A program made the position numbers and the translations under genes. Positions 10,739-57,928 of a DNA stretch of 64,000 nt are shown here, in pieces (within the stretch, counting starts at the first letter, position 1; the number at the start of each line of letters is the position of its first letter). A model generated the notes under the pieces. That model was not told where the DNA came from, searched no databases, and saw only the letters and a program-made list of their open reading frames with translations. Origin of the DNA: an uncultured Prolixibacteraceae bacterium (GTDB lineage: Bacteria; Bacteroidota; Bacteroidia; Bacteroidales; FEN-979); contig CAZTSX010000002.1 in assembly GCA_964616825.1 (NCBI GenBank), positions 79,811 to 143,810 of the forward strand, read 5' to 3'.

Positions 10739-10770
10739 GGTGAGAGGGTGACAAGGTAACAAGGTGACAA
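10739..10770 (-). repeat. octamer array GGTGAGAG GGTGACAA GGTAACAA GGTGACAA (TCACC-type units on minus strand)
   Basis: Four 8-bp units read directly, just after the methyltransferase stop (10732-10734). Confidence 0.8.
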
Positions 10771-10801: not shown

Positions 10802-10844
10802 ATGGCAATACAATGGCAATTTATGGCAATACAATGGCAATAAT
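10802..10844 (+). repeat. four ATGGCAAT boxes spaced 11, 10 and 11 bp
   Basis: ATGGCAAT at 10802, 10813, 10823 and 10834. The array ends 10 nt before the TTG start of the LolE-like gene. Confidence 0.85.
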
Positions 10845-12160: not shown

Positions 12161-12168
12161 TAACTTTG
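12161..12168 (+). promoter_or_regulatory. candidate -7 promoter element (TAACTTTG)
   Basis: Perfect TAnnTTTG 55 nt upstream of ATG 12223. No clear -33 TTTG. Confidence 0.3.
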
Positions 12169-12222
12169 ACGTTTTTACAGATATATACATATATAGAAGG
12201 AACTCTGATTAAATACGAGATT

Positions 12223-15200: not shown

Positions 15201-16137
15201 CAACTGTAATTATGATTATCTGGCTATTTATGACGGGAACACCACACTGGCTCCACAGATCGGAAAATTTTGCGGAACTGACTCCCCGGGCTTGATTGAA
15301 TCCACAGCTGCGGATGGTTCACTAACATTTAAATTTGTTTCCGATTATTCTGAAATTTACCCTGGTTGGGAAGCTGTTATAAGTTGTGCAGGAGGTCCTC
15401 TTACACTCATGGCCAACGCATTCCCATCATCGGTTTGCCTTGGATCATCCTCCCGCCTGTCAGCAATCCCTTCAGGTGGAACAGGAACATATACCTACCT
15501 GTGGGAACCGGCTACCTATCTTGATGATCCAACCAGTCAGTTCCCATTATGTATACCTGACGCCAACATTACCTACACCGTAACCGTTAATGATGGCAAT
15601 GAAACCCTCGTCTCAGATCCTGTAGAAGTTACAGTTCTGCCTATACCGGATGCAGCCATAATTACTCTGAATGGAGACCTCCTTGTGTCGAGTGTCATTG
15701 ACGGAAACCAATGGTATTACTATGGAGCTGTGATCCCCGGAGCCAACCAGGCTACATACCAGCCTACGCTTACAGGGGAGTATTATGTTACAATTACCGA
15801 TGAAATCACAGGGTGTGAGTCAGATCCATCCAACACCATCTACTATCTCTTTGCCTCAATCGACCAGAAGGGTGCTGAGAGATTGATACATGTCTACCCC
15901 AACCCATTCACCGACCGGTTGAATATCACCTTTAACCTGACTGAACCCGCTGCCGTTAGAATCATTCTGACAGATTCATTTGGGAGGTTGATCAGGGTGA
16001 TGAAAGACCACTCTTCAGTTGCTGCCGGTCAGCATTCCATTACGTTGGAGAGCGGCAACATGCAGCCCGGAATGTATTACTGCCGGATCCAGACAAATGC
16101 CTATACCGTAATCCGAAAAGTTATTCTAACCAGATAA
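12223..16137 (+). CDS. gingipain-like peptidase C25 with CUB domain, T9SS cargo
   Basis: Start moved to ATG 12223 (MMNFLLTRRAVALMLFCMPLLLFAGE signal). C25 propeptide and catalytic domain (YIIVADPMFEDALQPFIDWKSRKGFKV, ILFVGDVPQIPAF, His context YTAHCGTTGW, Cys context MVGNCCLSNKF). CARDB-like domains. CUB domain at 15061-15387. T9SS CTD (HVYPNPFTDRLNITFNL...MYYCRIQT). Confidence 0.9.
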   Translation: MMNFLLTRRAVALMLFCMPLLLFAGEIRINSGKTELHLTTNTYHQLSFTSHVSSIQFRDIQTKLGDFTELFVLGYGYSSEIGDPKLPVNRKLIEIPMDGTVEVQIINAEFTDYSLAGSGINFRIIPQQPSLSKAITDPEEIPFVINDESYLKNEFLGGPLVSVTPVGIMRAVNLARLDISPVKYNPVTGTLRIYKNIEAKISFTNGNEQAAIARKQALFSPYFDNIYNQLANYKHLTDELITTAPVTYIIVADPMFEDALQPFIDWKSRKGFKVVEAYTDDPTVGTSTTSISNYLEDFYTNPPAGYEPQSFILFVGDVPQIPAFNGTAGNHPTDLYYCEYTGDKIPECYYGRFSANNLVQLQPQIDKTLEYEQYLFPDEVFLGEAVMVAGYDAGGAGLTYGNGQINYGTENYFNTAHGILSHTYLQPEPGGANYSAQIKQNVSDGVTYANYTAHCGTTGWSNPSFKISDISNLQNENMYCLMVGNCCLSNKFSGICLGEELLRAENKGALGYIGGTNNTMWNEDFWWAVGFEAISTNPPYNPNHLGAYDVTFHDHGEAMEDWFVTQGQMFVGGNLAVEQSSTSTSTKTYYWEIYHLMGDPSLMVYMGIPPELTTVYPNELLVGSTSVDITTEPYAYIGLSKDGDTYISSACADSSGDATLTFDALTDPGYIGVVITKQNFKPHIDSIQIIPAVGPYVTLTSFIVNDSIGGNNNGNADFSEDILLGLEVSNIGVEPALNVTATLTSTDTNVVITNNNCVIDSIPAGGITICPDAFALTVNDFVEDQHVVFCEVVFEDGNNTWTSPLLLTLNAPVLVVNNITVIDPAPGGNNNGELDPGENAILRVTTRNEGHAVVGNGLGHMTVQPESSPFIIVNAPNCLIGDFPLNIDIEVDFPVETNGITPIGTIVTLDYNETAGMQNQFTAQEQFAIEIGALAVFTMQNGSENTCGARFYDSGGEFLPYSNNEYFTMTFFPSTAGAMLKVDFTEFVLEPSANCNYDYLAIYDGNTTLAPQIGKFCGTDSPGLIESTAADGSLTFKFVSDYSEIYPGWEAVISCAGGPLTLMANAFPSSVCLGSSSRLSAIPSGGTGTYTYLWEPATYLDDPTSQFPLCIPDANITYTVTVNDGNETLVSDPVEVTVLPIPDAAIITLNGDLLVSSVIDGNQWYYYGAVIPGANQATYQPTLTGEYYVTITDEITGCESDPSNTIYYLFASIDQKGAERLIHVYPNPFTDRLNITFNLTEPAAVRIILTDSFGRLIRVMKDHSSVAAGQHSITLESGNMQPGMYYCRIQTNAYTVIRKVILTR

Positions 16138-16173
16138 AAACAGAAACCCAATAGAATCAGAACCATCATCAAA

Positions 16174-19100
16174 ATGAAAAAGATTTTAACAATTGTTTTC
16201 ATACTGGCAATCAGCTTTGCCGGTATCAGTGCCAACTGGGTTGAGATCAATTCCGCTGATCCTGTCCCGGCAAAAACCACACTGGTCGCATCGAACATTG
16301 ATCAGTCAACCCTTACATTTACGCTGGGTGGTTTTTACCTCAATGAGGTCACAACAACCCGGGGAGATGCATTTATCCCTTATGTTGAAGAAGGCTCTTT
16401 CATGCTGGAAGCAGGATCACCCGATCTTCCGAAACTGACATCCACCCTGATCATTCCTGATCTGGCTGGTATGAAGGTAAAGATCATCTCCTCCAGCTAT
16501 CAGGATTATCCCAATATGGAGATCGCTCCATCGAAAGGAAACCTATTGAGAACAGTCGATCCCGCTACGGTTCCATACACCTATGGAGAGGTGTACCAGA
16601 CCAGCGAGTTTTTTCCGGGGAATCTGGCCGGAACCCGTGATCCGTTCATCGCCAGAGACCTGAGAGGGCAAACGCTGATCGTAAACCCATTCCAGTACAA
16701 TCCGGTGACTAAAACACTGCGTGTTTATCATGAGATAACAGTTGAGTTGTATAAGACAAGTGAGCTGGGAGTTAATCCGCTTACTCGAAAGAGTGAAGAG
16801 ATCAGACTTAGTGAAGAGTGGATCCAAATCTACTCCAATGAGTTTGTGAATTTCGATGCGATTACCTACACACCGCTTGACGAGTATGGAAACTTACTGA
16901 TCATTTGTCACGGTCCATTTATGGATGCCATGCAACCATATGTTGACTGGAAGACCTCTATTGGTTATCCTACTGAGATTATAGATGTGGCTACAATTGG
17001 TAGCACAGCAGGTGTAATCAAGGATTATATTGCAGATTATTACAATACAAATGGATTGAGTTTTGTCCTGCTGGTGGGTGATGGTCCTCAGATTCCTACC
17101 AACACAGGTGGCGGACTGGGAGGCCCGTCTGATAATGCGTATGGCTATATCGATGGAAATGATCACTACCAGGAGTTGTTTGTAGGGCGGTTTTCTGCCG
17201 AATCGATTGCCCAGGTGGAAACCCAGGTTACCCGGACAATTAATTACGAGCAGGATCCCCAGTTATTAACAGATGACTGGTACACAAGTGTCATTGGAAT
17301 AGCCTCTAATCAGGGCCCGGGTGATGATGGAGAATATGATTATGTGCACGTTCGTAATATGCAGGACGATTGCCTCAATTTTACCTACACCTGGAATCCG
17401 GAATATTTTGATGGTTCGCAGGGTGGAAATGATGCTCCCGGAAACCCATCTGCGGCCTCTGTTGGCGCTGGTGTGGATGAAGGAGCCAGCCTGATAGTCT
17501 ATACCGGCCATGGAAGCAATACCACGTGGGTTACCTCCGGATTCAATAATAACAATGTTAACAACCTGACTAACCAGGATAAACTTCCCTTTATCTGGTC
17601 TGTTGCCTGTGTAAACGGGAATTTTCAGAATATCACCTGTTTCGCTGAAGCCTGGCTACGGGCTACCGATAATGGAGAACCTACCGGAGCTGTTGCTTTC
17701 CTCGGATCCACCATAAACCAGAGCTGGAATCCGCCAATGGAGGGACAGGATGAGATGGTAGACCTCCTGGTCGAAACCTATTCTGACAATATCAAACGCA
17801 CATTTGCCGGATTATCCATCAATGGATGCTTTCAAATGAACGACACCTACGGTGGTGGAGGAGATGACATGACAGATACCTGGACAGTTTTTGGGGATCC
17901 AACGCTTTTTGTCCGGACTGATAACCCCGGAACTATGACTGTAACTCACGATCCTACATTATTTGTCGGCTCCACAACACTTGATGTTGATTGTAATGTA
18001 GATGGTGCCAGAGCAACGGCCTCATTAAACGGATCCATTCTGGCTACTGACATTGTGACTGGTGGTGGAGTCACCCTGGTATTTCCGGCATTAACAAATC
18101 TTTCAGATACTGTTCGCCTGGTGGTAACAGCCTTTAACTACATTCCTTACATAGCCGATATCCCGGTCATCACAGCCAACGGGCCATACATCCAGTATAT
18201 CAGTAATACGGTGAACGACCAGGGCGGGAACAGCGACCAGTTGGTAGATTATGGGGAGGATATCTTCCTGACAGTTGCATTGAAGAACCTGGGTGTGGCA
18301 GCTACCGAAAACCTCGAAGTAGAAGTGATTACAGCCCTTCCATATATCAACCAAACGGATTACACAGAGAATTACGGAGTCGTCCAGCCTGATGAGATCA
18401 AGGAGATCCCTGACGCATACTTTTTCGAAGTTTCCGGCAACATTCCCGATGGTGAAAATATTGAATTTGAGATGACTGCTATGGATGGAGCCCAAACCTG
18501 GACCTCTACATTCAACATTATAGCTCATGCTCCAAACCTGCAGCTAATTGGTAATGAGGTGCTTGATCCATCCGGCAATAATAACGGGCGCCTTGATCCT
18601 GGTGAGACTGCAGACCTGGTACTGACAATGAAAAACAACGGATCAGCTGATGCATACAACGTCGTCGGCGACCTGATCTCAATCAGTCCGTATGTGACGG
18701 TTACGTCAGATTTGAAAAACTTTGGAAACCTGGCAAGTGGCGATTCTACCTCACAAACCTATGCAGTGAATGTAGATCCGGGTGCACCATTAGGCCAAAC
18801 GGCTCCATTCCTGCTGGCAATCTCTGCCGACCGGAATCTGACATCAGTAATTACCTTTAACCTGACCATCGGAAACACACCAGTACTTGTTATCGACTTT
18901 GACGGTAACCTGAACTCAGGTCAGCATATGACAGATGCAGTATCCTCATTGGGTTTGCTGAATGATTATGATATGGCGATGCCGAATGAGATAGAAGGCT
19001 ACTCTGCTGTCTTTGTCTGTCTGGGTATTTATCCCGATAAACATATACTGACTTCCGAAGAAGGAAACCGGATAAAGAGTTTCCTGGATGAAGGTGGACG

Positions 19101-20013
19101 AGCATACATGGAGGGTGGAGATACCTGGAAATACGACCCGCAGACACCTGTTCATACAATGTTTCATATTCTTGGAATTACCGATGGAGAGGATGACCTG
19201 GGCACGATCCTGGGTCAACCCGGTTCCTTTGCAGAAGGGATGTCATTTGATTATGAAGGTGACAACAAATTCATTGACCGTATTACCAATGAAGGAACGG
19301 CATTTCAGATCTTTCGAAATCAGAGCCCCTACTATATCAATGGCGTCGCATATGATGGAGGCACGTTTAAAACCATCGGCTCATCATTTGAATTTGGCGG
19401 TCTGGCTGACGGTGCAACTCCATCTACCAGAAAAGATTTGATGGAAGAGTATCTCACCTTCTTCGGTATCGACATCCCGGCATTGGCTGCAAACTTTGTC
19501 GGATATCCTACCAGTATTAACGTTGGACAAAATGTGGGCTTTTACGACTTCTCTACAGGCGGAGTAAACTCCTGGCAGTGGTCTTTCGAAGGAGGAACCC
19601 CGTCAACTTCAACTGAGCAAAATCCGGTGGTATTTTACGATACACCCGGCGCCTATGATGTGACCCTGATTGTCGGCGATGGAAATACCACTAATACCAT
19701 GACTAAAACTGACTATATCACTGTTGATTATATCACAGGTATTTCAGAGCCTGGTGGGGCATTGCAATGTGTCGTAATTCCCAACCCAAATAACGGGACC
19801 TTCAGAATCAAATTTGCTGCCTCGCAAGAGGATCAAGTCAATTTGAAGATCTTCAATACGATGGGAACCATGGTCTATTCAGAAACGGGTGTTGCCATTT
19901 CAAATAGCCTTGACAAATTGATCTCTCTGGCAAATGTGCCGAATGGAATGTATATCCTGACGGTACAGGGTCAGCACAATACATGGACCGGTAAGGTTGT
20001 CGTAAACAAGTAA
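16174..20013 (+). CDS. gingipain-like peptidase C25 with alpha/beta module, PKD domain and T9SS CTD
   Basis: Signal peptide. LLIICHGPFMDAMQPYVDWKTSIGYPT, VLLVGDGPQIPT, catalytic His YTGHGSNTTW and Cys SVACVNGNF. CARDB-like domains. Shared module at 19000-19465. PKD (WQWSFEGGTP...AYDVTLIVGDG). CTD (VVIPNPNNGTFRIKF...MYILTVQG). Confidence 0.92.
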   Translation: MKKILTIVFILAISFAGISANWVEINSADPVPAKTTLVASNIDQSTLTFTLGGFYLNEVTTTRGDAFIPYVEEGSFMLEAGSPDLPKLTSTLIIPDLAGMKVKIISSSYQDYPNMEIAPSKGNLLRTVDPATVPYTYGEVYQTSEFFPGNLAGTRDPFIARDLRGQTLIVNPFQYNPVTKTLRVYHEITVELYKTSELGVNPLTRKSEEIRLSEEWIQIYSNEFVNFDAITYTPLDEYGNLLIICHGPFMDAMQPYVDWKTSIGYPTEIIDVATIGSTAGVIKDYIADYYNTNGLSFVLLVGDGPQIPTNTGGGLGGPSDNAYGYIDGNDHYQELFVGRFSAESIAQVETQVTRTINYEQDPQLLTDDWYTSVIGIASNQGPGDDGEYDYVHVRNMQDDCLNFTYTWNPEYFDGSQGGNDAPGNPSAASVGAGVDEGASLIVYTGHGSNTTWVTSGFNNNNVNNLTNQDKLPFIWSVACVNGNFQNITCFAEAWLRATDNGEPTGAVAFLGSTINQSWNPPMEGQDEMVDLLVETYSDNIKRTFAGLSINGCFQMNDTYGGGGDDMTDTWTVFGDPTLFVRTDNPGTMTVTHDPTLFVGSTTLDVDCNVDGARATASLNGSILATDIVTGGGVTLVFPALTNLSDTVRLVVTAFNYIPYIADIPVITANGPYIQYISNTVNDQGGNSDQLVDYGEDIFLTVALKNLGVAATENLEVEVITALPYINQTDYTENYGVVQPDEIKEIPDAYFFEVSGNIPDGENIEFEMTAMDGAQTWTSTFNIIAHAPNLQLIGNEVLDPSGNNNGRLDPGETADLVLTMKNNGSADAYNVVGDLISISPYVTVTSDLKNFGNLASGDSTSQTYAVNVDPGAPLGQTAPFLLAISADRNLTSVITFNLTIGNTPVLVIDFDGNLNSGQHMTDAVSSLGLLNDYDMAMPNEIEGYSAVFVCLGIYPDKHILTSEEGNRIKSFLDEGGRAYMEGGDTWKYDPQTPVHTMFHILGITDGEDDLGTILGQPGSFAEGMSFDYEGDNKFIDRITNEGTAFQIFRNQSPYYINGVAYDGGTFKTIGSSFEFGGLADGATPSTRKDLMEEYLTFFGIDIPALAANFVGYPTSINVGQNVGFYDFSTGGVNSWQWSFEGGTPSTSTEQNPVVFYDTPGAYDVTLIVGDGNTTNTMTKTDYITVDYITGISEPGGALQCVVIPNPNNGTFRIKFAASQEDQVNLKIFNTMGTMVYSETGVAISNSLDKLISLANVPNGMYILTVQGQHNTWTGKVVVNK

Positions 20014-20925: not shown

Positions 20926-20957
20926 ATTCTTTGTTATTCGCTATTCTTAATTTTTAA

Positions 20958-21005
20958 CTCACCAGTTCACCAACTCACCAATTCACCACCTCACCAGTTC
21001 ACTAG
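20958..21005 (+). repeat. octamer array, YTCACCAN family (6 units)
   Basis: CTCACCAG TTCACCAA CTCACCAA TTCACCAC CTCACCAG TTCACTAG, between the barrel-gene stop (21013) and the Omp28-like start (20925). Confidence 0.9.
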
Positions 21006-21012
21006 TTTCTCC

Positions 21013-27167: not shown

Positions 27168-27863
27168 ATGAGGACACTCGAAAAAGAAAATTTCGAACGA
27201 TTATTTAAAGAGGAGTTTACCGGACTCGTTATTTTTGCCATCCAGTATGTCAAAGATTATGAAGCTGCCCGTGAGATCGTGCAGGAAGCATTTATCAATA
27301 TGTGGAGCAGAAGAGAGCAGATTGATCAGTCGAAAGCTGTGAAATCATACCTTATCACGTCGGTCAAAAACCGTTCTCTGAACCACCTTCGTGATAATAA
27401 TAAGTTTGACTCCAACTTGCTGGTTTCCGAAGATCTGTATCCATTACCTGCCTATCAGCAGTCTGATCACCTGGTAGAGAAGGAACTAAAGGAACAGATC
27501 ACGCTTGCGATTAAGGAACTTCCTGAGAAATGCCGCGAAGTTTTTCTGCTGAATCGGGATGAGCACATGAAGTATCAGGAGATTGCCGATCAACTTCAGA
27601 TCTCTGTAAAAACTGTCGAAACACAGATGTCGAAAGCGCTCCAGCACATGCGAAAAAAACTCAGGGATTATTTGATTGTATTATGCCTGATAAGCCTGAT
27701 AAGCCTGATGCCATTGCTTCATCACTATGTTCCTCACTATGATACACGAACCAACATTGTCATTGCGAGCGAAGCGACGCAACACCAGCTCACCAGCTCA
27801 CAATCTCACCAACATTTCATCAGGGTAAACCTCCTTTCATGTGTACTATTATCGGATAAATGA
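27168..27863 (+). CDS. ECF-type RNA polymerase sigma-70 factor with repeat-encoded C-terminal tail
   Basis: Region 2 (VQEAFINMWSRRE) and region 4 HTH (YQEIADQLQISVKTVETQMSKALQHMRKKL). After ...LRDYL about 60 extra codons run through the repeats at 27685-27820 to a TGA that overlaps the FecR ATG. Confidence 0.85.
   Translation: MRTLEKENFERLFKEEFTGLVIFAIQYVKDYEAAREIVQEAFINMWSRREQIDQSKAVKSYLITSVKNRSLNHLRDNNKFDSNLLVSEDLYPLPAYQQSDHLVEKELKEQITLAIKELPEKCREVFLLNRDEHMKYQEIADQLQISVKTVETQMSKALQHMRKKLRDYLIVLCLISLISLMPLLHHYVPHYDTRTNIVIASEATQHQLTSSQSHQHFIRVNLLSCVLLSDK
27685..27820 (+). repeat. composite short-repeat block (9-mers, hairpin, octamers)
   Basis: GCCTGATAA x2.5 (27685-27711), TCACTATG x2, hairpin TTGCGAGCGAAGCGACGCAA, then AACACCAG CTCACCAG CTCACAAT CTCACCAA CATTTCAT (27781-27820). 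Confidence 0.8.
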
Positions 27864-29047
27864 GCACGAACGAAACATATGATCCCAAACTGATGACCCG
27901 CTACTTCTCCGGAGAAGCTACTCCTGAAGAGATGCGCGAGCTATCCAAATGGATAAAAAGTGATCCGGCTAATGCCAGTGTTTTTGATGAATACAGGAAG
28001 AGCTGGCTGGCCATTACTGCTCTCCAGGTTGAAGAGCAAATGGATGTTGATCAGGAATGGGATGAACTGAAAAAGAAGATAACTCCAATTGAACCGGCAC
28101 TGAGATCACCCTTGAAATTGGTGAAGATTCCGTCTCGCAAGAAAAAACCCGAATATAGTGTTCCTTCAATAGAAGAAACCACAGAAAAAGGAACTCCGGC
28201 ACAACCGGCACCGGTATTTGAAGAACCTCCCGCTATTGAAGAGACCAGTGAAGTAATTCGAATGGAACCTGAAGTAATTGAACCTGAAGGAATCGATTGG
28301 CGGATTGGCCTGATTCGGGCAGCTACTATCGCTGCAATAGTACTGGTTTTGCTTATCCCGACCTGGGTTGTGTATCGTTACTTTACTACGCCAGATATTA
28401 CGAAAATCATGGCTTCGAATGAGATGTTAGAGACAACCCTGTCCGATGGAACTATCGTAACCCTTAATGCACATGCCTCTATCTCCTATACCGAGGATTT
28501 TGGAAAAGGTATCCGGGAGGTGGAAATCAAAGGGGAAGGTTATTTTGATGTAGTCCACGATTCGGCCCAGCCGTTTATCCTCTCCAGCGGGAATGCCAGA
28601 ATCGAGGTGCTTGGAACAGCATTCTACGTCAACACGACGAAAAATGGAGAAGACGTGGAGGTTGTGCTCGTGGTAGGGAGCCTGTCTGTCTATTTTGAAG
28701 ATATTTACGGTGAGAGAAAGACCATCATCCCCGGCGAAAAAGCGGAGCTCATCCAAGCGAATCAGCGGATTGTGGTGATCCCGAACGAGGATCCAAATTT
28801 TCTTGCCTGGAAAACACGCCGCATGATCTTCCTGGATGACCGACTCGATGTGATCATTAAAACCTTGAACAAAGTATACCAAACCGATATCCGACTGGGA
28901 TCACAGGGACTTGCTGCCTGCCGCCTGACAGCCTCTTTTAACCGCCAATCTCTGGAATCGGTATTGAGTGTCATTCAGGCTACACTTGATCTCAATTCGG
29001 AATCCACCTCATCCGAAATTATCCTCTACGGGGCCGGATGCAACTAG
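27860..29047 (+). CDS. FecR-family anti-sigma factor / sensor
   Basis: Cytoplasmic N-domain (YFSGEATPEEMRELSKWI), Pro/Glu-rich linker, single TM (AATIAAIVLVLLIPTWVVY), periplasmic FecR/DUF4974-like domain. ATGA overlap with the sigma gene. Confidence 0.85.
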   Translation: MSTNETYDPKLMTRYFSGEATPEEMRELSKWIKSDPANASVFDEYRKSWLAITALQVEEQMDVDQEWDELKKKITPIEPALRSPLKLVKIPSRKKKPEYSVPSIEETTEKGTPAQPAPVFEEPPAIEETSEVIRMEPEVIEPEGIDWRIGLIRAATIAAIVLVLLIPTWVVYRYFTTPDITKIMASNEMLETTLSDGTIVTLNAHASISYTEDFGKGIREVEIKGEGYFDVVHDSAQPFILSSGNARIEVLGTAFYVNTTKNGEDVEVVLVVGSLSVYFEDIYGERKTIIPGEKAELIQANQRIVVIPNEDPNFLAWKTRRMIFLDDRLDVIIKTLNKVYQTDIRLGSQGLAACRLTASFNRQSLESVLSVIQATLDLNSESTSSEIILYGAGCN

Positions 29048-31737
29048 CAGGGAAAGACATATCAATCCGACTCCTTCCCGGAGGAACTTTCCGTACGATC
29101 ACTTTTCTATTCTTTTTTTTATCACAGTTTATCCTGACCGGACAAGATCTTGACCGGCAGATCAGCCTGGAAGTAAACAATAACCGATTGAAAGATGTCC
29201 TGGATCTGATTGCCAAGGAAGGAGATGTCAGCTTCTCCTACAGTTCCTTATCCATCCCGGTTGATCAGAAAATCACCTATCGATGTGACAGCAGGTCCAT
29301 CCGGCAGGTGCTGAATACGATCCTGCCACCACTTGGCATTGAATGGCTGGTTGTAGAATACCAGATCGTCCTGAAGCGGAAAAAATCAGGTGCTTCATCC
29401 GGAGCAGAAATGCCTGCTCGCTCATTACCCAGCTACGTTGTGAGTGGGTATATCAGGGATAAAACAACCGGTGAAGCATTGATCGGGGCCAATGTGGTAG
29501 TCAGAAAATCCATGATGGGAACGACTACCAACACATATGGTTTTTACTCCCTCTCCTTGCCACAGGGCATCCATGAAGTGGAATACTCATATTTGGGATT
29601 TCAGGAGCAGACCCGGAGCATGGACCTGCAACAGAACAAAGAGGTCTCGCTGGAAATGGAAGAGACCAGCCTGGGCATGCGGGAGGTGGTGATCCGTGCC
29701 AGGGATAACGAGCAATTACCGGCAGTCAATCAGCCAGGTGATTTCAACTTTTCCGGAGCTACACTGGAGAAGCTACCTGGTTTTGCAGGTGATGTCGACG
29801 TCCTGAAAGCGCTCCAGTTCCTGCCGGGAATCAGATCGTTCGGAGATGGATCGTCCCTCTTTTATGTCAGAGGAGGGAACAACGACCAGAACCTTCTGAT
29901 GATTGATGAAGCACCGATCTACAACCCATCCCACCTGTTCGGTTTCTTCTCTGTGTTAACGCCTGATGCTGTAAACGACATGGAGATCTATAAAGGAGAC
30001 TTTCCGGCAAGATTTGGAGGGAGGACATCCTCAGTGATTGATATCACCGCCCGGGAAGGGAATATGAAGCGGTTTGGATTTGGCGGGAACCTGGGGCCCT
30101 ATGCCTCCTCTCTCACAATTGAAGGTCCTATCGTAAAAGAGAAAGGTTCATTCCTGCTCTCAGGTCGTCTCTCCACCCTCAACTGGTTGAACTACGTGAT
30201 GGATAACTCCGGATCATTCGACCTCTATTTTTATGATATCAACGCTAAATTCAACGTCAAACCTTCTCAGAAAGATCGCCTCTTCTTAACATTCTATACC
30301 GGAAGAGACGAGTTTCGCCGGGAGACGAATTCTGTCTACCGCACTTACGGAATCAGGTGGGATAATCTTGCAGGCACATTGCGCTGGAATCATCTCTTTA
30401 ATCCGAAGTTGTTCTCCAATACCACGATCAACTTCAGCCACTATAACTACTTCCTCTATCTCTCATCAGATAGGAAGAACTACTGGAATTCCTCCATCGG
30501 AAACCTGACCCTGAAAAGTGATTTCACCTGGTTCCTCAACCCGAAAAATACCCTGCGGACCGGATTTGCCGTGACCCGCTACCACTCAAATCCAGGAAAT
30601 GTGACTCAGCAGGGAGATGATGAGCAACTGGAGCTACGTGAAGTCCCGGCTTATACATCCATGGAGTATATGCTCTACCTGAGCAATGAGCAGAAAATCG
30701 GCAGTCGCCTCTCTCTCAATTATGGAATACGCCTTCCGGTTTGGCAGAATTTTGGTCCCACTACCATTTACTATTTTGATGCCAATCACTCGGTGATCGA
30801 TACGTTGGCAGTAGGCAGGAACCGGTACTATTCCCTTTTTTTTAGTCCCGAACCACGCCTCTCTGTCGGATTTGCTTTGAATAGCCAATCTTCCCTGAAA
30901 ACCAGCTACAGCCGAACGACCCAGTTTATGCAGTTGCTGTCTGATCGAACCGGTCCATTCACATCACTCGAGGTGTGGGCTCCTGCCGGACCCAATATCC
31001 AACCCCTGAAAGCCGACCAGGTGACACTGGGTTACTTCCTGAAATTTGCTTCCTCCCGGCTCCACTTTTCTGCGGAAGCCTTTTATAAACACTATAGGAA
31101 TCATATCGACTATGCTGATCATGCCAACCTGCTCTACAATCCATTGGTTGAGGGTGAACTCCGGTTTGGGAAAGCGTGGTCGTATGGCCTGGAATTGATG
31201 CTTCAAAAACCGGTTGGTAAGCTCTCCGGATGGATAGCCTACACCTGGTCCCGGTCATTGGTCAAAACTCCGGAGGTGAATGATGGAAACACCTATCCAG
31301 CCAGTTTCGACAGTCCGAATAACCTCTGCCTGTTTGTCTCGTACGATACCAGGAAGCGGTGGTCATTTTCAGCCAGCTGGATTTACATGACGGGGAATCC
31401 GGTAACCTCCCCCATCGGGTTTTATGAGTACAATGGCTCTACTGTTCCTCTATACGGAGATAAAAATAACGAACGGTTGCCCGATTATCACCGGTTGGAT
31501 CTCTCTGTAGTGTATCGGCTAAACAAACCAGGGAATCGCTTCCGCCACAGTCTGGCTGTAACAGTTTACAACGCATATGGACGGGCCAATCCTTTTTCAG
31601 TCAGTTTCAACAAGTATTCGAACAGCCAGGGACAATATGTCGTACCATCAAACCTTAATGGAGACTATGAGTTGGTCCCTACCATGATCTCCGTAGCCGG
31701 GATCATCCCATCGATCAACTATCAATTCAAGTTCTGA
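29038..31737 (+). CDS. TonB-dependent receptor with STN and carboxypeptidase-regulatory-like domains
   Basis: STN domain (LEVNNNRLKDVLDLIAKEGDVSFSY), CarbopepD_reg (VSGYIRDKTTGEALIGANVVV), plug (FYVRGGNNDQNLLMIDEAPIYN), 22-strand-type barrel ending INYQFKF. Confidence 0.9.
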   Translation: MQLAGKDISIRLLPGGTFRTITFLFFFLSQFILTGQDLDRQISLEVNNNRLKDVLDLIAKEGDVSFSYSSLSIPVDQKITYRCDSRSIRQVLNTILPPLGIEWLVVEYQIVLKRKKSGASSGAEMPARSLPSYVVSGYIRDKTTGEALIGANVVVRKSMMGTTTNTYGFYSLSLPQGIHEVEYSYLGFQEQTRSMDLQQNKEVSLEMEETSLGMREVVIRARDNEQLPAVNQPGDFNFSGATLEKLPGFAGDVDVLKALQFLPGIRSFGDGSSLFYVRGGNNDQNLLMIDEAPIYNPSHLFGFFSVLTPDAVNDMEIYKGDFPARFGGRTSSVIDITAREGNMKRFGFGGNLGPYASSLTIEGPIVKEKGSFLLSGRLSTLNWLNYVMDNSGSFDLYFYDINAKFNVKPSQKDRLFLTFYTGRDEFRRETNSVYRTYGIRWDNLAGTLRWNHLFNPKLFSNTTINFSHYNYFLYLSSDRKNYWNSSIGNLTLKSDFTWFLNPKNTLRTGFAVTRYHSNPGNVTQQGDDEQLELREVPAYTSMEYMLYLSNEQKIGSRLSLNYGIRLPVWQNFGPTTIYYFDANHSVIDTLAVGRNRYYSLFFSPEPRLSVGFALNSQSSLKTSYSRTTQFMQLLSDRTGPFTSLEVWAPAGPNIQPLKADQVTLGYFLKFASSRLHFSAEAFYKHYRNHIDYADHANLLYNPLVEGELRFGKAWSYGLELMLQKPVGKLSGWIAYTWSRSLVKTPEVNDGNTYPASFDSPNNLCLFVSYDTRKRWSFSASWIYMTGNPVTSPIGFYEYNGSTVPLYGDKNNERLPDYHRLDLSVVYRLNKPGNRFRHSLAVTVYNAYGRANPFSVSFNKYSNSQGQYVVPSNLNGDYELVPTMISVAGIIPSINYQFKF

Positions 31738-32576: not shown

Positions 32577-32625
32577 TATCCGGCATCCGGTATCCGGTAT
32601 CCGACATCTGGTATCCGGCATCAGA
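32577..32625 (+). repeat. heptamer array, CATCSRG family (7 units)
   Basis: TATCCGG CATCCGG TATCCGG TATCCGA CATCTGG TATCCGG CATCAGA. Intergenic. Confidence 0.9.
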
Positions 32626-45577: not shown

Positions 45578-45662
45578 GTTCAAAGTTCAAGTCTCAAGAC
45601 AACTTATCCAATATCTAACATCCAACATCTAATTATCAAGTCATCGAGCAACGAGCATCTAA
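45578..45662 (+). repeat. heptamer array with unit drift (about 12 units)
   Basis: GTTCAAA GTTCAAG TCTCAAG ... ATCCAAT ATCTAAC ATCCAAC ATCTAAT TATCAAG TCATCGAG CAACGAG CATCTAA. Fills the whole gap between two minus-strand genes. Confidence 0.85.
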
Positions 45663-46708
45663 AATATCATAACACCACTCTCCCCGGTCTCCCTGGCGAA
45701 GCCTCTGAACATCGCATTGGTATTAAATGGCATAGCGATGTTTCCATCCTGATCCACTGCGATCAATCCCCCATTTCCGCCCTGTGGCTTCAATTTCTCG
45801 AAAATGATGTAGTGGGCTGCATCTTTCACGCACATCCCCGAATATTCCATTAATGCCGACATATCATAAGCTACGGCATTCCGGATAAAATATTCGCCAT
45901 GTCCCGTCCCGGAAACAGCGCAGGTGGCATTGTTGGCATATGTTCCTGCTCCGATAATAGGAGTATCTCCGATTCTTCCTTTCATCTTCATCATCATCCC
46001 TCCCGTGGAGGTGCCAGCGGCCAGGTTCCCTTCCCGGTCAAGGGCAACAGCGCCTACTGTACCCTTGGTAGCTTCTTTCTTTAGCAACTTCTTTTTTGCC
46101 CGTTCAAATTGCCCGGTACGTCTTTGCGTTAGGAAGTAGGAAGGATCGACGATCTCCAGTCCGCTTTTTTCAGCTAAGAGTTCAGCCCCTTCCCCCATCA
46201 ACAGCACATGTTTGGTGTTAATCATCACCTCCCTGGCCGCACTGATTGGATTCCTGATGGTTTTAACTCCGGTTACCGCACCGGCCATCAGGCTCTTTCC
46301 ATCCATAATGGAAGCATCCAGTTCAGCAAACCCTTCGTCGTTATAAACGGCTCCTTTACCGGCGTTAAACAGAGGGCAATCTTCCATAAATACAATCACC
46401 GACTCCACTGCATCCAGACTGCTTCCACCTTGGTCAAGGATATCTGCTCCTACTTGCAATGCTTCGGCAAGTTTATCCTTATACTGCTTCTCCCTCTCTT
46501 CCGACATCGACCCTCTGGATACTCCGCCAGCCCCACCATGAATGACTAGTACCCAATTTCCGATCCTGGATTCTGGATCCTGGATTGTGGATGTTGAGTC
46601 ATTTTGACCAAAACCAGACAGGTTAATTAAAAACATTATCATCAGCAATAATCCACATCCAGCATCAAGCATCCAGCATCTAGCATCAAACATCTTGACT
46701 CTTTTCAT
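45659..46708 (-). CDS. isoaspartyl peptidase / L-asparaginase (Ntn hydrolase)
   Basis: VIHGGAGG, autoprocessing site GTVGAVALD (Thr nucleophile), GAGTYANN, GTGHGEYFIR. The start codon is uncertain because codons 6-20 are encoded by the array at 46651-46699. Confidence 0.85.
   Translation of the reverse strand: MKRVKMFDARCWMLDAGCGLLLMIMFLINLSGFGQNDSTSTIQDPESRIGNWVLVIHGGAGGVSRGSMSEEREKQYKDKLAEALQVGADILDQGGSSLDAVESVIVFMEDCPLFNAGKGAVYNDEGFAELDASIMDGKSLMAGAVTGVKTIRNPISAAREVMINTKHVLLMGEGAELLAEKSGLEIVDPSYFLTQRRTGQFERAKKKLLKKEATKGTVGAVALDREGNLAAGTSTGGMMMKMKGRIGDTPIIGAGTYANNATCAVSGTGHGEYFIRNAVAYDMSALMEYSGMCVKDAAHYIIFEKLKPQGGNGGLIAVDQDGNIAMPFNTNAMFRGFARETGESGVMIF
46651..46699 (+). repeat. heptamer array, CATCSRG family (7 units)
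   Basis: ATCCACA TCCAGCA TCAAGCA TCCAGCA TCTAGCA TCAAACA TCTTGAC. On the minus strand it reads as MFDARCWMLDAGCG at the N-terminus of the asparaginase ORF. Confidence 0.85.
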
Positions 46709-49432: not shown

Positions 49433-51331
49433 ATGAGACTCTATATTGCTTTTATTCTAATTCTTTTCACGTTTCACGTCTCACGTTTCACGTCTTACGG
49501 GCAAACTGAATCCACTACCCTCCCCAAACAACTTCCCTTTCAACAACAGGCACAAATCAAGCCTCCGGTAGATGAAGCCAGGCTTGCAATGAAATTCTAC
49601 CAGGCAAAAGATTTCGAGAAATCGGTAGAGCTCTATGAGAAACTATACAACAAGAAACCCTCCTCCTTTTACTATATGTATTACTTGCACAGTCTGATCG
49701 AGCTGAAGGAATATAAAAAAGCAGAGAAGCTGATCAAAGCCCGTAGAAAAAGTGATTCCCGAGCGGTGAAATACCTGGTTGACCTCGGCTATCTTCACTA
49801 CCGGGAGGGAAATGCAGAGAAAGCCAGAAAATTATATGATGAATCAGTGGATAATCTGGAAGCTGATCAACAGCAGATCTCCGGCCTGGCTAATGCTTTC
49901 ATCCTGAAAGGGGAGAACAGTTATGCCCTCAGGACATATCTGAAAGGCAGGGAGTTGTTACAAGGCGCCTATCCGTTCGGTTTTGAACTGGCCAATGTAT
50001 ACCAACGGATGGGCGATTTTCCCAATTTGTTCGAGGAGTACCTAAATTTGCTTGAAGTCAACGAGAGTTACCTGCGTACCGTTCAGGACCGACTTCAGAA
50101 TATCCTGATAAAAGATCCTGATAACTCCCGGAATGAACTTTTTCGTCAGGCATTGCTTACACGGGTACAGGGCTCGCCGGATCAACCCACCTATGCCGAC
50201 TTGCTCTGGTGGTACTCAATTCAACAAAAGGATTTCGAGTTGGCCCTGATCCAGTCGAAAGCCCTCGATCGTCGAAGACAGGAACAGGGCAGCCGGATCA
50301 TCCAGCTTGCGCAGCTGGCAGTATCCAACAGGCAATATGACATCGCACTCGATGCATATAAGTATCTGCAAGGGAAAGGGGAGGCGTATCCCTATTACGA
50401 CATCAGCAGGATTGAATGGGCAAATACCCGTTTCCTTCACATGACAACTAGTACCAATTCCGTTGAAAAGGATCTGACTGAATTGGAAAATGAGTTTTGG
50501 GAAGTACTTGAGTTCACCGGTGAGAACCGTCAATCTGTATCCCTGATGCAAAACCTGGCTCACCTGGAAGCTTTCTACCTTGGCCATCCGGATATCGCTA
50601 TCGATCTGCTCAACAGGGCTATAGCGTTGAAAGATATAGATCCGAAACAGCGGGCATACTGCAAGCTCGAGTTAGCAGATATTCTGCTTTTTTTTGGTGA
50701 TGTGTGGGAAGCTACATTGTTGTATCAGCAAGTGTATCAGAAGTACAAATACGATGTGTTGGGACAGACCGCAAAATTCAAAAACACCATGCTCTCATTC
50801 TATATTGGGGAGTTCAGCTGGGCAAAAGCTCAGGCTGATATACTCAAAGCAGCTACCGATAAATTGATTGCCAACGATGCCCTGGCCTTATCAATCCTGA
50901 TTGGTGAGAATTTCGATCCCGACTCCAATACGGTCGCTCTAACGATGTATGCAGAAGCTGATCTGTTGAGTTTCAAGCATGAAGACGAAGAGGCATTACA
51001 GTTGTTGGATTCAATACCCACGCTTTTTGGCTACCACCCTATCCTGGATGATATCTTGCTGAAAAAAGCAGAGATTTATGAAAAAAGTGGACGGTTTGAG
51101 GTGGCCGACAGCTTGCTGCAAAAAATTACGACAACATATCCGGAAGAGGTTCTGGCCGACAAAGCTCTTTTTTTTCGTTCGGTGTTGCAGGAAAACCGGC
51201 TGAATGATCCTGACAAAGCGATGGAACTCTACGGAAAATTGCTGGAAGATTATCCAGGCAGCATCTATGTAGTGGATGCCAGAAAAAGGTTTAGATATTT
51301 ACGGGGAGATACCATTCGCATTGAACCTTGA
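49433..51331 (+). CDS. tetratricopeptide-repeat protein (secreted)
   Basis: Multiple TPR-like helix pairs (AMKFYQAKDFEKSVELYEKLY, LGYLHYREGNAEKARKLYDESV, ...). The N-terminal hydrophobic segment partly coincides with the heptamer array at 49465-49499. Confidence 0.75.
   Translation: MRLYIAFILILFTFHVSRFTSYGQTESTTLPKQLPFQQQAQIKPPVDEARLAMKFYQAKDFEKSVELYEKLYNKKPSSFYYMYYLHSLIELKEYKKAEKLIKARRKSDSRAVKYLVDLGYLHYREGNAEKARKLYDESVDNLEADQQQISGLANAFILKGENSYALRTYLKGRELLQGAYPFGFELANVYQRMGDFPNLFEEYLNLLEVNESYLRTVQDRLQNILIKDPDNSRNELFRQALLTRVQGSPDQPTYADLLWWYSIQQKDFELALIQSKALDRRRQEQGSRIIQLAQLAVSNRQYDIALDAYKYLQGKGEAYPYYDISRIEWANTRFLHMTTSTNSVEKDLTELENEFWEVLEFTGENRQSVSLMQNLAHLEAFYLGHPDIAIDLLNRAIALKDIDPKQRAYCKLELADILLFFGDVWEATLLYQQVYQKYKYDVLGQTAKFKNTMLSFYIGEFSWAKAQADILKAATDKLIANDALALSILIGENFDPDSNTVALTMYAEADLLSFKHEDEEALQLLDSIPTLFGYHPILDDILLKKAEIYEKSGRFEVADSLLQKITTTYPEEVLADKALFFRSVLQENRLNDPDKAMELYGKLLEDYPGSIYVVDARKRFRYLRGDTIRIEP
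49465..49499 (+). repeat. heptamer array TTTCACG family (5 units)
   Basis: TTTCACG TTTCACG TCTCACG TTTCACG TCTTACG, translated as FHVSRFTSYG inside the putative signal peptide. Confidence 0.85.
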
Positions 51332-51342
51332 ACCCGCACCTT

Positions 51343-52226
51343 ATGACCTTATTCGCTAAGAAATCCCTTGGCCAACATTTCATGACAGATGAGAACATCG
51401 CCAGGAAAATCATCGGATACCTGAATCCGGAGATTCCATGTGTGTTGGAGATTGGTCCAGGCAAAGGAATATTGACAAAATACCTGCTTGAAAACCCTGC
51501 ATTCAATCCCCTCTTCATCGAGATCGACAAGAACGTAGCAGCTTATTTAAAACAAACTTATCCGACGATCAAGGACAAGCTAGTGGAGAAGGATTTTCTG
51601 CAACTTGACCTTTACAAATTGACAAAAACACAAAACCACAAGCCACAAGTTCAAAAAGACATCCAATCATCCAACATCCAACATCGAGCATCGAGCATCG
51701 AGCATCGAGCATCGAGCATCGAGCATCGAGCATCGAGCATCGAGTACCGAGAATCCAGCTCCTCGGAAACTTCCCTTACAACATCTCCTCACAGATCCTC
51801 TTCCGGGTGATTGAATACAAAGACAAGGTTGAAGAACTGGTCGGGATGTTTCAGCGCGAAGTAGCACAACGGATCGCCTCTCCACCCGGATCAAGAAAGT
51901 ATGGCATTCTGAGTGTCCTACTGCAGGCATATTACGATATTGAGTACCTGATGTCTGTTAGCGAAAAGGTATTTCAACCTCCCCCTAAGGTGAAATCAGC
52001 CGTGATCAGATTGAAGAGAAACGATGTTAAGGCGCTTGATTGCGACGAAGCTTTTTTCATCAAGGTGGTAAAAACCGCTTTCAACCAACGCCGGAAGATG
52101 CTTCGAAACTCCTTGCGCTCGGTGGCTGGGTCCGGATTCTCCGATTGGGATGATCCGGTCATGAGGAAGCGACCGGAGCAGCTTTCAGTGGATGAGTTTA
52201 CCCGGCTTACCCGCCTGATACAGTAG
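51343..52226 (+). pseudogene. rsmA: 16S rRNA (adenine1518/1519-N6)-dimethyltransferase RsmA/KsgA, reading frame broken inside a heptamer array
   Basis: N-terminal half in frame 1 (FAKKSLGQHFMTD, VLEIGPGKGILT, EIDKN, EKDFLQLDL) ends at TGA 51808-51810. C-terminal half in frame 3 (IQLLGNFPYNISSQILF, MFQREVAQRIASPPGSRKYGILSV, FQPPPKVKSAVIRLKRN, FNQRRKMLRNSL) is open from 51609 to 52226. Confidence 0.85.
51621..51758 (+). repeat. heptamer array inside rsmA (about 20 units, 9 perfect CATCGAG)
   Basis: ACAAAAA CACAAAA CCACAAG CCACAAG TTCAAAA ... CATCCAA x3, then CATCGAG x9 (51682-51744), TACCGAG, AATCCAG. Confidence 0.92.
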
Positions 52227-52270
52227 GGAACAGCAGAAAATTTCTAATTTTACACCTTAAACTTCCCGGA

Positions 52271-54301
52271 ATGATGGAAAAAGGCCCCCGGAAGAATAAA
52301 CTGGTCAGGAGTGGTAAAGAGATAGCCAGAGAGTTATTAACCCCTCCCAGCTCAAGAAAAGCAAATGGATATTTCATCCTCTTCTTTTTCGTTTGGGCAT
52401 TTATACTATATGGAAATACGATTTTGAATAAATACGGGGTAGACGACGAATTCGTGACCAACAACGAGACTGTCAGAAAGGGATTAGCTGCCATCCCCGA
52501 GATCTTTACCACCCATTATATCAATCAAACGGGAAACGTAGGTGATAACACGGCTGATTATCGCCCTGTCGTGAAATTGACCTATGCTCTTGAATACCAG
52601 ATATTCCAGGGAGAAAATCCAGGCAGAAGCCATGCGATAAATGTTCTGATCTACATCTTTATCTCCATTCTTCTCTTCTTTATCCTGAAGCGGATATTGA
52701 AGAATTACAACATCCTCTTCCTGTTTTTGATCACAGTCGTTTTTATGGCCCACCCGGTCCATACGGAAGTTGTTGCCAGCCTGAAAAACCGTGATGAAAT
52801 GCTGGCTTTTTTATGTGGGCTCGGAGCATTATCTCTCATACTCAGATATGCGGAGCGAAGAAAGTTGTGGTATGTTCTACTCGCCCTGCTTGTGTTTTTT
52901 ACCGGTTACCTCTCTAAAGCTTCGATCCTCCCGTTTGTGCTGATCTATCCTTTGGTCCTCTATTTTTTTACCGATCTCTCCCCGAAAAGATATATTCCCA
53001 TTTCCATTGCAATGGTCGCGGTAGCTATCATTGCACAAATCGGACCAGACCTCTTTCTTCCGGCAGGAGAGAGGCTGGCCAGCGCAATCGAAAACCCCCT
53101 CTATGCAGAAGATGGATTTCTTTACCGGGTTGGCACCGGACTACTTTCGCTTCTCTTTTACGTGAGGATTCTGATTTATCCCCACCCACTTCTTTTTTAC
53201 TATGGGAATGAGATGATTCCCCTGACTACACCCGGGAACATTTGGGCAATCATCTCCTTCGTGTTGTATACCGGATTGCTCCTGTATGCTATCTCCACAT
53301 TTAATAAGAAACATATACTCTCATTTGCCATCTTCTGGTATCTGATTTTCATAGCGATGTACTCTAACTTACTGATTCCTGTGATGGGAATTGTAGCAGA
53401 ACGTTTCGTTTTTGCTGCGTCACTCGGATTCTGCATCGCTCTGGTTTGGATTGTATTCAAGATATTCAGGACCGAGCCGAACAGCCTCACGATCGAATTT
53501 GATGCCCGGGCCAAGATTCTTGTTGTCGTGATTCTGATCCTGATCCCTTACGCTGCAGTTACAATCACCCGCAACCGGGAGTGGCGCAATCTGTTAGATC
53601 TCTACCGGAAAGATATCCCTTACCTTGAGAATTCTGCCAAAGCCAATACGCAATATGCCGGATACCTGATGCAAACAACTTTTCGGGATCCGAACTTCCT
53701 GAAGCATGGCAATGTAAACGAGTTCAAGTTGGATGTAATCAAGAAACATTTCCATAGGTCGCTGGAGATCTTTCCGGATAACTATCAAACAATGAATGAC
53801 CTGGGAACCGTCTACCTCTTTCTGGGGAAAGATCCGGATTCGGCTATCATTTACCTGAAGCGGGCAATTGCCCTGAATGATCATTTGGAACCAGCCTGGG
53901 TCAATCTCGGTATGGCCTTCCGTGAAATGAAGAGATACGATAGTGCGGCCTGGTGTTATTCGACCATTTTAAGAAGAAATCCTTCACACATCCGGGCATA
54001 TTTTGCGCTTGCCAATGTCTATAACGATATGGGGCATATCAACCGGGCTATCGATATGAATAATGAGGTGCTGAAAAGCAATCCCAACCTGGATATGCCA
54101 TTCATCAATATCGGCAACTACCTTTTGTTGACAGGAGATACAGCGATGGCGATCCTGAACTATGAAGAAGCGATCAAGCGTCGCCTGACATTCGAAGGAT
54201 GTATACACCTGAGTAATCTATACAAGGGCCTGGGAGATATGCAGAAGTCGGACTACTACCTGCAGCGCTCTTCTGAGGCGCTGAAGCGGAACCAGAGGTA
54301 A
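52271..54301 (+). CDS. polytopic GT-C-type glycosyltransferase-like membrane protein with C-terminal TPR domain (PMT/TMTC/ArnT-like)
   Basis: TM1 followed by the acidic loop motif YGVDDEFV, about 10 further TM helices, then C-terminal TPRs (NDLGTVYLFLGKDPDSAIIYLKRAIALND, AWVNLGMAFREMKRYDSAAWCYSTILRRNP, YFALANVYNDMGHINRAIDMNNEVLKSNP). Confidence 0.7.
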   Translation: MMEKGPRKNKLVRSGKEIARELLTPPSSRKANGYFILFFFVWAFILYGNTILNKYGVDDEFVTNNETVRKGLAAIPEIFTTHYINQTGNVGDNTADYRPVVKLTYALEYQIFQGENPGRSHAINVLIYIFISILLFFILKRILKNYNILFLFLITVVFMAHPVHTEVVASLKNRDEMLAFLCGLGALSLILRYAERRKLWYVLLALLVFFTGYLSKASILPFVLIYPLVLYFFTDLSPKRYIPISIAMVAVAIIAQIGPDLFLPAGERLASAIENPLYAEDGFLYRVGTGLLSLLFYVRILIYPHPLLFYYGNEMIPLTTPGNIWAIISFVLYTGLLLYAISTFNKKHILSFAIFWYLIFIAMYSNLLIPVMGIVAERFVFAASLGFCIALVWIVFKIFRTEPNSLTIEFDARAKILVVVILILIPYAAVTITRNREWRNLLDLYRKDIPYLENSAKANTQYAGYLMQTTFRDPNFLKHGNVNEFKLDVIKKHFHRSLEIFPDNYQTMNDLGTVYLFLGKDPDSAIIYLKRAIALNDHLEPAWVNLGMAFREMKRYDSAAWCYSTILRRNPSHIRAYFALANVYNDMGHINRAIDMNNEVLKSNPNLDMPFINIGNYLLLTGDTAMAILNYEEAIKRRLTFEGCIHLSNLYKGLGDMQKSDYYLQRSSEALKRNQR

Positions 54302-57888: not shown

Positions 57889-57928
57889 CTCACCAGTTCA
57901 CCAATTCACCAGTTCACCATCTCCCCAA
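57889..57928 (+). repeat. octamer array, YTCACCAN family (5 units)
   Basis: CTCACCAG TTCACCAA TTCACCAG TTCACCAT CTCCCCAA. Ends 5 nt before ATG 57934. Confidence 0.9.

Follow-up and report, generated by a model that had tools for sequence, protein, structure and literature searches.

The rsmA gene in the 64-kb window, by which we mean the whole stretch of DNA analysed here, comes from an uncultured marine member of the Bacteroidota and is split by an array of CATCGAG heptamers. We propose with moderate confidence that this array is a translated heptanucleotide microsatellite, hypermutable and placed in a loop predicted to be disordered, of an otherwise normal rsmA under selection, and that the nine units of the window's copy are a miscount or a minority variant. 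Judged from the sequence, the locus is a clear case of a heptanucleotide long simple sequence repeat (LSSR) and a non-triplet microsatellite translated in a housekeeping ribosome-biogenesis gene, at a hot spot conserved in the clade.

An rsmA gene divided over two reading frames

Positions 51343-52226 hold the coding sequence of an RsmA/KsgA-type 16S rRNA dimethyltransferase, divided over two frames. The N-terminal ORF (51343-51810, plus strand, frame mod3=1) contains GQHF, SAM motif I and the DFLQLDL strand, followed by the loop and the array, and matches positions 4-96 of the Pfam profile RrnaAD (PF00398) with 53.1 bits and an E-value of 3e-14. It terminates out of frame at the TGA at 51808-51810, and its product is identical to the database protein P0002. 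The C-terminal part (51759-52226, plus strand, frame mod3=0) contains LLGNFPYNIS with motif IV (LLGNFPYNISSQILF), PPPKVKSAVIRL and the C-terminal domain, ends with the stop at 52224-52226 and matches RrnaAD positions 104-234 with 109.5 bits (E 2e-31). Both scores exceed the curated cut-off of 24. These ORFs and profile matches confirm what the initial annotation had reported, namely that both conserved halves of RsmA are present in different frames and that the upstream frame ends at this TGA.

The catalytic motifs are all intact. SAM motif I (E-x-G-x-G-x-G-x-L-T) reads VLEIGPGKGILT, catalytic motif IV (N-[LF]-P-Y) lies in LLGNFPYNIS, and alignment A1 shows no variation at these columns. Solved RsmA structures are matched at an E-value of 3e-39 (phmmer), and from its sequence the split gene clearly belongs to the RsmA/KsgA family. 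Domain order and motifs are those of canonical RsmA/KsgA (E. coli 1QYR, Coxiella 3TQS), to which both halves align over their full length. Unlike the canonical proteins, the gene carries a repeat insert of 40-47 aa, predicted to be disordered, in place of a loop of about six residues before beta-4, and the window's halves lie in different frames. Relative to a sister species (80% identity), the N half has a dN/dS of 0.13 and the C half one of 0.18, and by this measure both halves are under purifying selection. No second rsmA copy was found within the 64-kb window, and a promoter and terminator scan of 51200-52400 gave matches not above those of shuffled sequence.

A single uninterrupted frame for both domains is absent in the window, with its nine units, and present in the 10- and 7-unit alleles described below. 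In frame 0 there is no ATG, GTG or TTG between the upstream stop (~51606) and motif IV, which rules out that an internal restart yields a C-terminal product including this motif. The one callable C-terminal ORF starts at GTG 51807 and does not include the motif. With no frame-0 start codon upstream of motif IV, the nine-unit allele would therefore be null.

The nine perfect CATCGAG units (51682-51744, plus strand) are the only part of the array that differs between assemblies, where 6, 7, 8, 9 or 10 are found. They are preceded on the same strand by degenerate units of the ACATCCA/CATCCAA type, with CATCCAA twice (51659-51681), and followed by two more degenerate units, TACCGAG and AATCCAG (51745-51758), which connect the array to the codons of ...IQLLGNFPY. 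TRF reports period 7 and 11.1 copies at 51682-51759 with a score of 128, the top score of the window. The nine perfect copies of the initial annotation are thus borne out by sequence and TRF alike, while its figure of ~138 bp for the heptamer array was an overestimate: the recognisable period-7 stretch covers ~100 bp (51659-51759), and the A/C-rich sequence at 51612-51658 is without clear heptamer pattern. The array is open in all three frames, and each of them encodes a permutation of HRASSIE, again as annotated. As a single strand, the array has imperfect hairpin potential (-14.9 kcal/mol, z -2.8), a predicted property that would favour slippage.

The array had also been described as a frame counter, in which adding one unit or deleting two would fuse the halves. 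This holds among the sequenced alleles, as the RsmA encoded on contigs measures 296 aa with 10 units and 289 aa with 7, whereas n = 9 would be null. Because seven is 1 mod 3, full-length RsmA would be expected only at n = ...4, 7, 10, 13, and would carry n/3 copies of the HRASSIE peptide.

A probably permissive loop in RsmA and its relatives

Compared with ordinary RsmA, the whole loop insert spans 51613-51758 (plus strand), or ~47 codons in the 10-unit allele. In a phmmer alignment to Coxiella RsmA (3tqs), query residues 6-92 and 140-295 are aligned and a 47-aa insert replaces about six residues. It lies between the helix after DFLQLDL (post-beta-3) and strand beta-4, ahead of the NFPY catalytic motif. 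The site of the ~45-aa loop insertion given by the initial annotation was therefore correct, and its size is refined to 47 aa replacing about six. AlphaFold2, run with a 26-sequence alignment, gave pLDDT below 50 at residues 98-136, with means of 28, 27 and 29 for the 10-residue blocks of 101-130, and ~90 or more across most of the core. The insert is accordingly predicted to be disordered inside a confident core. From the Rossmann topology, the loop probably faces away from the SAM site and the 30S interface.

The same loop is enlarged in relatives. The eight closest homologues, from MAGs labelled Bacteroidales or Bacteroidota and 58-80% identical, measure 263-328 aa against ~255 aa for ordinary RsmA, and alignment A1 confines their extra length to that one loop. 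In-frame inserts at this place were found in relatives at 53-80% identity, the lowest being P0042 (305 aa, 53%). We read the insert DNA of three relatives, at 59-80% identity, and each has a heptamer array in the same loop. The insert of the sister species (80% identity) consists of (CATCCAA)5-6 and (CATCGAG)3, with the CATCCAA block as the expanded one. The second is made of (GACAACC)8, (GCATCCA)5 and a GC-rich palindromic element translated as PSPEGEGSKPPLGGLGV, and the third of (AACCAGC)18. These arrays are heptameric, imperfect and in frame, and their units differ between relatives. Sequence comparison thus points to the RsmA loop as a long-standing permissive hot spot that accumulates and turns over heptamer arrays in this clade, with the frame kept by selection. 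In-frame, heptamer-derived inserts in relatives down to ~53% identity favour such a repeat-collecting loop over an evolved switch.

With the 139-aa C-terminal fragment as query, many C-terminal RsmA fragments of other Bacteroidota came up, none of which begins in a repeat; they sit mostly on short contigs, as contig-end truncations, and are no evidence on split genes. A scan of genome and metagenome contigs with the 296-aa protein found no close relatives, the best match being 48% identical (Echinicola).

Unit counts in near-identical assemblies

Near-identical contigs were collected by exact-protein look-up of the neighbouring TPR gene and then through the protein cluster, which has five forms. 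Ten units, with an intact protein of 296 aa, were found on 13 JGI contigs, and seven units, with an intact protein of 289 aa, on 7 JGI contigs. Nine units, with the gene in pieces of 155 and 139 aa, occur on 7 contigs from NCBI and ENA; eight units leave a 154-aa fragment, read in the third frame, on 4 ENA contigs; and six units leave a 135-aa fragment on 1 JGI contig. A 295-kb JGI contig has ten units and one 296-aa RsmA, and an ENA scaffold has nine, the same as the window. In-frame alleles make up 20 of the 21 JGI contigs, and ENA/NCBI assemblies alone show the out-of-frame counts 8 and 9. At the level of contigs, the out-of-frame count 6 was seen once, in JGI. Counted by allele type, three of the five are out of frame.

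Where the DNA was read (one example per form), the number of perfect units is the sole difference within the array. The coding sequences of the alleles are otherwise identical and have no further lesions, and the flanks of the contigs differ by 0-4 SNPs per 5-14 kb. Unit number therefore varies, at assembly level, among otherwise near-identical genomes, as it does in contingency loci. The 10-unit allele comes from at least four different JGI samples and two SNP haplotypes. The 7-unit allele occurs on contigs up to 68 kb, and the same JGI sample series also gives 10 units. The 6-unit allele has its own SNP haplotype, with 4 SNPs in 4.7 kb, and judging from this sequence background it looks like a real strain variant. 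Two other haplotypes are each found with two counts: 53627A/54228G with 10 units in JGI and 8 in ENA, and 53627G with 7 units in JGI and 9 in ENA and in the window.

Among the 15 tandem arrays compared, the one in rsmA is alone in varying from assembly to assembly, and no other is both long and perfect. The other 14, which are shorter or imperfect, are unchanged in every covering assembly (2 to 15 loci each). Taken as sequence evidence, these comparisons make a real copy-number polymorphism at the rsmA array very likely. Variable unit number among near-identical genomes is, by the same comparisons, the raw material for slipped-strand switching.

Assembly graphs as a possible source of unit counts

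The confinement of the counts 8 and 9 to one assembly source was examined by building de Bruijn graphs from synthetic alleles and counting units on the shortest path through the array for each k. In the k=55 graph, the shortest traversal gives exactly 8 units for any allele of at least 8, and one extra 7-bp loop gives 9. These are exactly the counts found in the ENA scaffolds. The shortest path holds 6 units at k=41, 7 at k=43, 8 at k=55 and 9 at k=63, and 10 units are recovered only if k exceeds the array length. The pair of 10 units in JGI and 8 in ENA on haplotype 53627A/54228G is the pattern expected from collapse. Collapse could likewise explain the counts 7 and 6, with a k of 43 or 41.

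SPAdes uses k values of 21, 33 and 55 by default. One MAG study of the Cariaco Basin assembled its data with SPAdes 3.11.1 in --meta mode at default settings (PMC9902471). Our guess, made from the author-style prefixes together with PMC9902471 and PMC7785012, is that the samples 'SUTE22-1' and 'SCRA20-1' are tied to the Cariaco Basin and to the SPAdes default k-mers. Assembler miscounting is the probable source of the counts 8 and 9, and the nine-unit frameshift of the window is more likely to be such a miscount than a real OFF state.

Other observations speak for real variation. A 7-unit array measures 49 bp and is not inflatable at k=55, so haplotype 53627G should have at least two true counts. 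Given real count differences within one haplotype, genuine out-of-frame intermediates are plausible. The initial annotation had allowed that its proposal might fall to an assembly error; the counts 8 and 9 fit such an error, and the 6-unit JGI allele and the 7 against 9 units on 53627G point the other way.

A family of heptamer arrays across the window

Counting arrays with 3.5 or more copies, the window has nine of period 7 and five of period 8, while 30 dinucleotide shuffles contained none of either kind. Six of the period-7 loci have CATCNNG-type units (10029, 32578, 45605, 46562 as the reverse complement, 46656 and 51659-51759), with the variants CATCGAG, CATCCAG, CATCCGG, CATCAAG and CATCCAA among them. 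The sister array at 10029-10082 (plus strand) consists of CATCGAG twice, TATCGAG, CATCCAG, GATCCAG and CATCCGG twice, and is invariant in 5 assemblies. It is read in frame as HRASSIEHPGSSIRHPAS, directly ahead of the SAM motif in another methyltransferase (ORF 9895-10734). Other family arrays sit in signal-peptide regions or intergenic gaps: one of CATCNAG type, with CATCCAG and CATCAAG units (46656-46694, no strand assigned), falls in the signal-peptide region of an asparaginase gene on the minus strand, and the others are at 32578-32622, 45605-45633 and 46562-46592. From its units, the rsmA array is one member of a dispersed CATCNNG heptamer family and not as something special to rsmA.

Heptanucleotide STRR arrays of cyanobacteria are comparable repeats. 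In many prokaryotes, long simple sequence repeats are most often heptamers, which also occur in some Bacteroidetes, according to the summary of Mrazek et al. 2007 in PMC4679880. The arrays described here share with those repeats of 5-11-nt units, as far as they are covered in PMC4679880, the heptameric unit, the many arrays per genome, the related units at different loci and the rapid turnover between relatives. They are unlike them in that several are coding and translated (the RsmA loop, the other methyltransferase, signal peptides), whereas non-triplet units are, in the same summary of Mrazek et al. 2007, usually depleted from coding regions. TAACTGA heptamers form intergenic direct repeats in Beggiatoaceae, Cyanobacteria and a few Bacteroidetes (PMC4679880). 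These too are short tandem heptamers, abundant genome-wide and present in some Bacteroidetes, and the window's 8-bp arrays (GATAACTG, TCACCAGT) also lie directly upstream of start codons. The unit here is CATCGAG, however, the rsmA array is intragenic, and no link to translational regulation is suggested.

Discussion

Presumed large-k assemblies have in-frame consensus alleles of 10 and 7 units, suggesting that the working state of rsmA is ON, its loop differing in length between alleles. Replication slippage on the perfect tract of 9-10 units would create the length alleles, of which only those with n = 1 mod 3 would be functional and reach consensus. The nine units of the window would most likely come from the mis-sizing of a longer in-frame allele in a short-k de Bruijn graph and, less likely, from a real slippage variant.

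The genes that serve as contingency loci normally have surface or restriction-modification functions; examples are the lic and mod tetranucleotide tracts of Haemophilus influenzae and the CTCTT pentamer of Neisseria opa. Loci of this kind, built on simple sequence repeats, are reviewed in PMC11868660. In anatomy, and going by sequence features, the rsmA locus resembles one: a perfect tract lies within an ORF, its unit length is not a multiple of 3, and the number of units sets the frame. Close genomes differ solely in unit number, and both ON and OFF counts are seen in assemblies. The differences are that rsmA encodes a housekeeping methyltransferase of ribosome biogenesis and not a surface or restriction-modification function, that its tract is in a loop in mid-gene and translated when ON while theirs are near the 5' end, that many arrays like it exist elsewhere in the genome, and that its OFF counts may be assembly artefacts. 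Among the ten top-ranked of 341 papers from a literature search on ksgA and phase variation, none mentions ksgA and none is a prior report of its phase variation.

Under a genuinely phase-variable rsmA, slipped-strand mispairing would toggle the gene at high frequency between ON (7, 10) and OFF (6, 8, 9), and OFF cells would dominate some samples, without m6,2A1518/A1519 and with altered 30S maturation or tolerance of kasugamycin-type aminoglycosides. We find this unlikely, though several observations speak for it. The tract is perfect, intra-ORF and 9-10 units long, its unit length is no multiple of 3, and its strand has hairpin potential; five counts occur on near-identical backgrounds where all other arrays are constant; at least two counts share one SNP haplotype; the OFF count 6 comes from a JGI assembly with its own haplotype; and single-unit steps from 10 to 7 must traverse OFF states. 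On the other hand, the OFF counts 8 and 9 are limited to one assembly source and equal the artefacts of a k=55 graph, 20 of the 21 JGI contigs are in frame, and the array is part of a genome-wide repeat family and not gene-specific. The insert site is common to relatives whose arrays are imperfect and hence not switch-competent. Selection on rsmA is strongly purifying. Loss of KsgA is costly in E. coli, so that OFF cells should stay rare unless positively selected. The ON/OFF switch of the initial annotation therefore stands as far as unit number varies and counts both in and out of frame are seen, and finds no support beyond that. The same holds for its proposed subpopulation with unmethylated 16S rRNA, given that nearly all JGI contigs are in frame and that 8 and 9 match k=55 paths. 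A further step, in which rsmA is a real contingency gene, single-unit slippage reversibly abolishes A1518/A1519 dimethylation, the resulting ribosome heterogeneity serves as bet-hedging and arrays are kept in this one loop across the clade for their switchability, is a reading that we likewise consider unlikely.

It is possible in principle that every difference in count, 7 against 10 included, is an assembly artefact of one true allele, with no biological polymorphism; indeed each count but 10 is the shortest path at a commonly used k (41, 43, 55 or 63). This is quite improbable with 7 units on seven JGI contigs, some as long as 68 kb, in a sample series that also gives 10, with 6 units on a distinct SNP haplotype, and with a sister species whose array has a different composition at the same place, which marks the locus as fast-evolving. 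A fixed or decaying pseudogene, its function lost or taken over by a second copy elsewhere, would agree with the frame-shifted copy of the window, and only 64 kb of the genome are in view. We consider it very improbable: near-identical genomes have intact alleles, the coding sequences are identical bar the unit count and show no other lesions, dN/dS is low in both halves, and the window contains no second rsmA. The same intact alleles and ratios speak against the possibility, raised in the initial annotation, of a pseudogene fixed in all relatives, and the nine-unit copy is not a fixed pseudogene. Were the frameshift corrected in expression, through programmed ribosomal frameshifting or slippage in transcription, the nine-unit allele would still yield full-length RsmA, and with three open frames a shift would be tolerated anywhere in the array. 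Such a correction we reject as hardly credible, since the array and the sequence that follows it contain neither a slippery X XXY YYZ heptamer nor a homopolymer run. No recoding mechanism of this kind is known for heptamer repeats, and none is needed where in-frame alleles exist. A hypermutable microsatellite in the loop of a working rsmA remains the reading that we prefer.

Tandem arrays whose length equals or exceeds the assembler's k yield frame-shifted "pseudogenes" in MAGs, of which this locus would be a clean example, and such miscounting of repeats bears on how many pseudogenes are counted and how complete a genome is estimated to be. Should the out-of-frame alleles be real, a universally conserved enzyme of ribosome biogenesis would be phase variable, an unusual target, and this would offer a route to heritable yet reversible ribosome heterogeneity in the environment. 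Were rsmA a contingency gene, OFF cells would have slow-maturing 30S subunits and tolerance to kasugamycin-type aminoglycosides. Under the likelier reading, a marine Bacteroidota clade tolerates and translates non-triplet microsatellites in its housekeeping proteins, and the hot spot in the RsmA loop, its content turning over between species, would serve as a natural experiment in how permissive a loop can be and how its repeats change.

Divergence and insertions at the rsmA repeat loop

The two halves of rsmA, the 16S rRNA dimethyltransferase gene, have diverged unevenly from the sister species. Comparing the intact gene of the near-identical contig L001 (7911-8801) with that of the sister species (L012, 3001-3843), we obtained a dS of about 1.0 for the N-terminal half and about 0.18 for the C-terminal half, and this roughly fivefold excess in the N-terminal half is suggestive of recombination, the breakpoint lying in the repeat loop or close to it. 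In L016, a locus from another relative, the RsmA loop carries an inserted GC-rich palindromic element, CCCCTCCCCTGAAGGGGAGGGG...AGCCCCCTTTAGGGGG, at about 3290-3360. The alignment of RsmA homologues (A1) places the element at the same loop in P0013, P0018, P0020, P0023, P0025, and P0026 as well. Its in-frame translation reads ...TPDPSPxGEGSKxPSGDLGV..., and the element has the look of a REP/MITE-like repeat that a housekeeping protein tolerates.

Tandem arrays elsewhere in the window

Upstream of rsmA, a gene for a 632-aa TPR protein contains another heptamer array, TTTCACG x5 (49465-49499), within the signal-peptide region. An array occupies the same position in two related species, as four perfect TTTCACG units in L016 (1083-1110) and as TTACGTC x4.7 in L012 (967-999), and thus a non-triplet coding repeat has been retained across species.

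Five 8-bp arrays, at 1701-1729, 10739-10770, 20956-21007, 27783-27811, and 57890-57919, all lie in gene ends or short intergenic gaps, with units that include GATAACTG, GGTGACAA, TCACCAGT/AACTCACC, and CACCAGCT. The next start codon (in the same order 1731, 10854, 20925 on the minus strand, 27860, and 57934) follows each array by about 1-85 nt, mostly by no more than about 30 nt, and the orientation of the arrays relative to the downstream gene varies. None appeared in 30 dinucleotide shuffles of the window. In their placement 5' of start codons they resemble the TAACTGA direct repeats reported from Beggiatoaceae, Cyanobacteria, and certain Bacteroidetes (PMC4679880). Neighbouring the array at 10739, and directly 5' of the ORF starting at 10854, is an 11-bp array of unit ATGGCAATACA (x3.8, 10802-10842), which can also be read with a 21-bp period (x1.9, 100% match).

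Assembly irregularity and gene content

In L031, an ENA scaffold (SAMN10231921) from the assembly set that also yields the 9-unit, out-of-frame rsmA, the gene for an 899-aa TonB-dependent receptor (about 2786-5269, corresponding to about 29038-31737 of the window) is called as a 442-aa fragment. Compared with other assemblies, this scaffold has the locus offset by 207 bp; a gap in the scaffold or a local misassembly is the probable cause of the anomaly.

The regions 12166-20013 and 2533-6618 of the window encode a tandem pair of large gingipain-like Peptidase_C25 proteins bearing Por_Secre_tail (T9SS) domains, together with a PKD/T9SS protein. A 23S_rRNA_IVP gene lies at about 43.2-43.6 kb. 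Taken together, this gene content is consistent with a particle-associated Bacteroidota organism.
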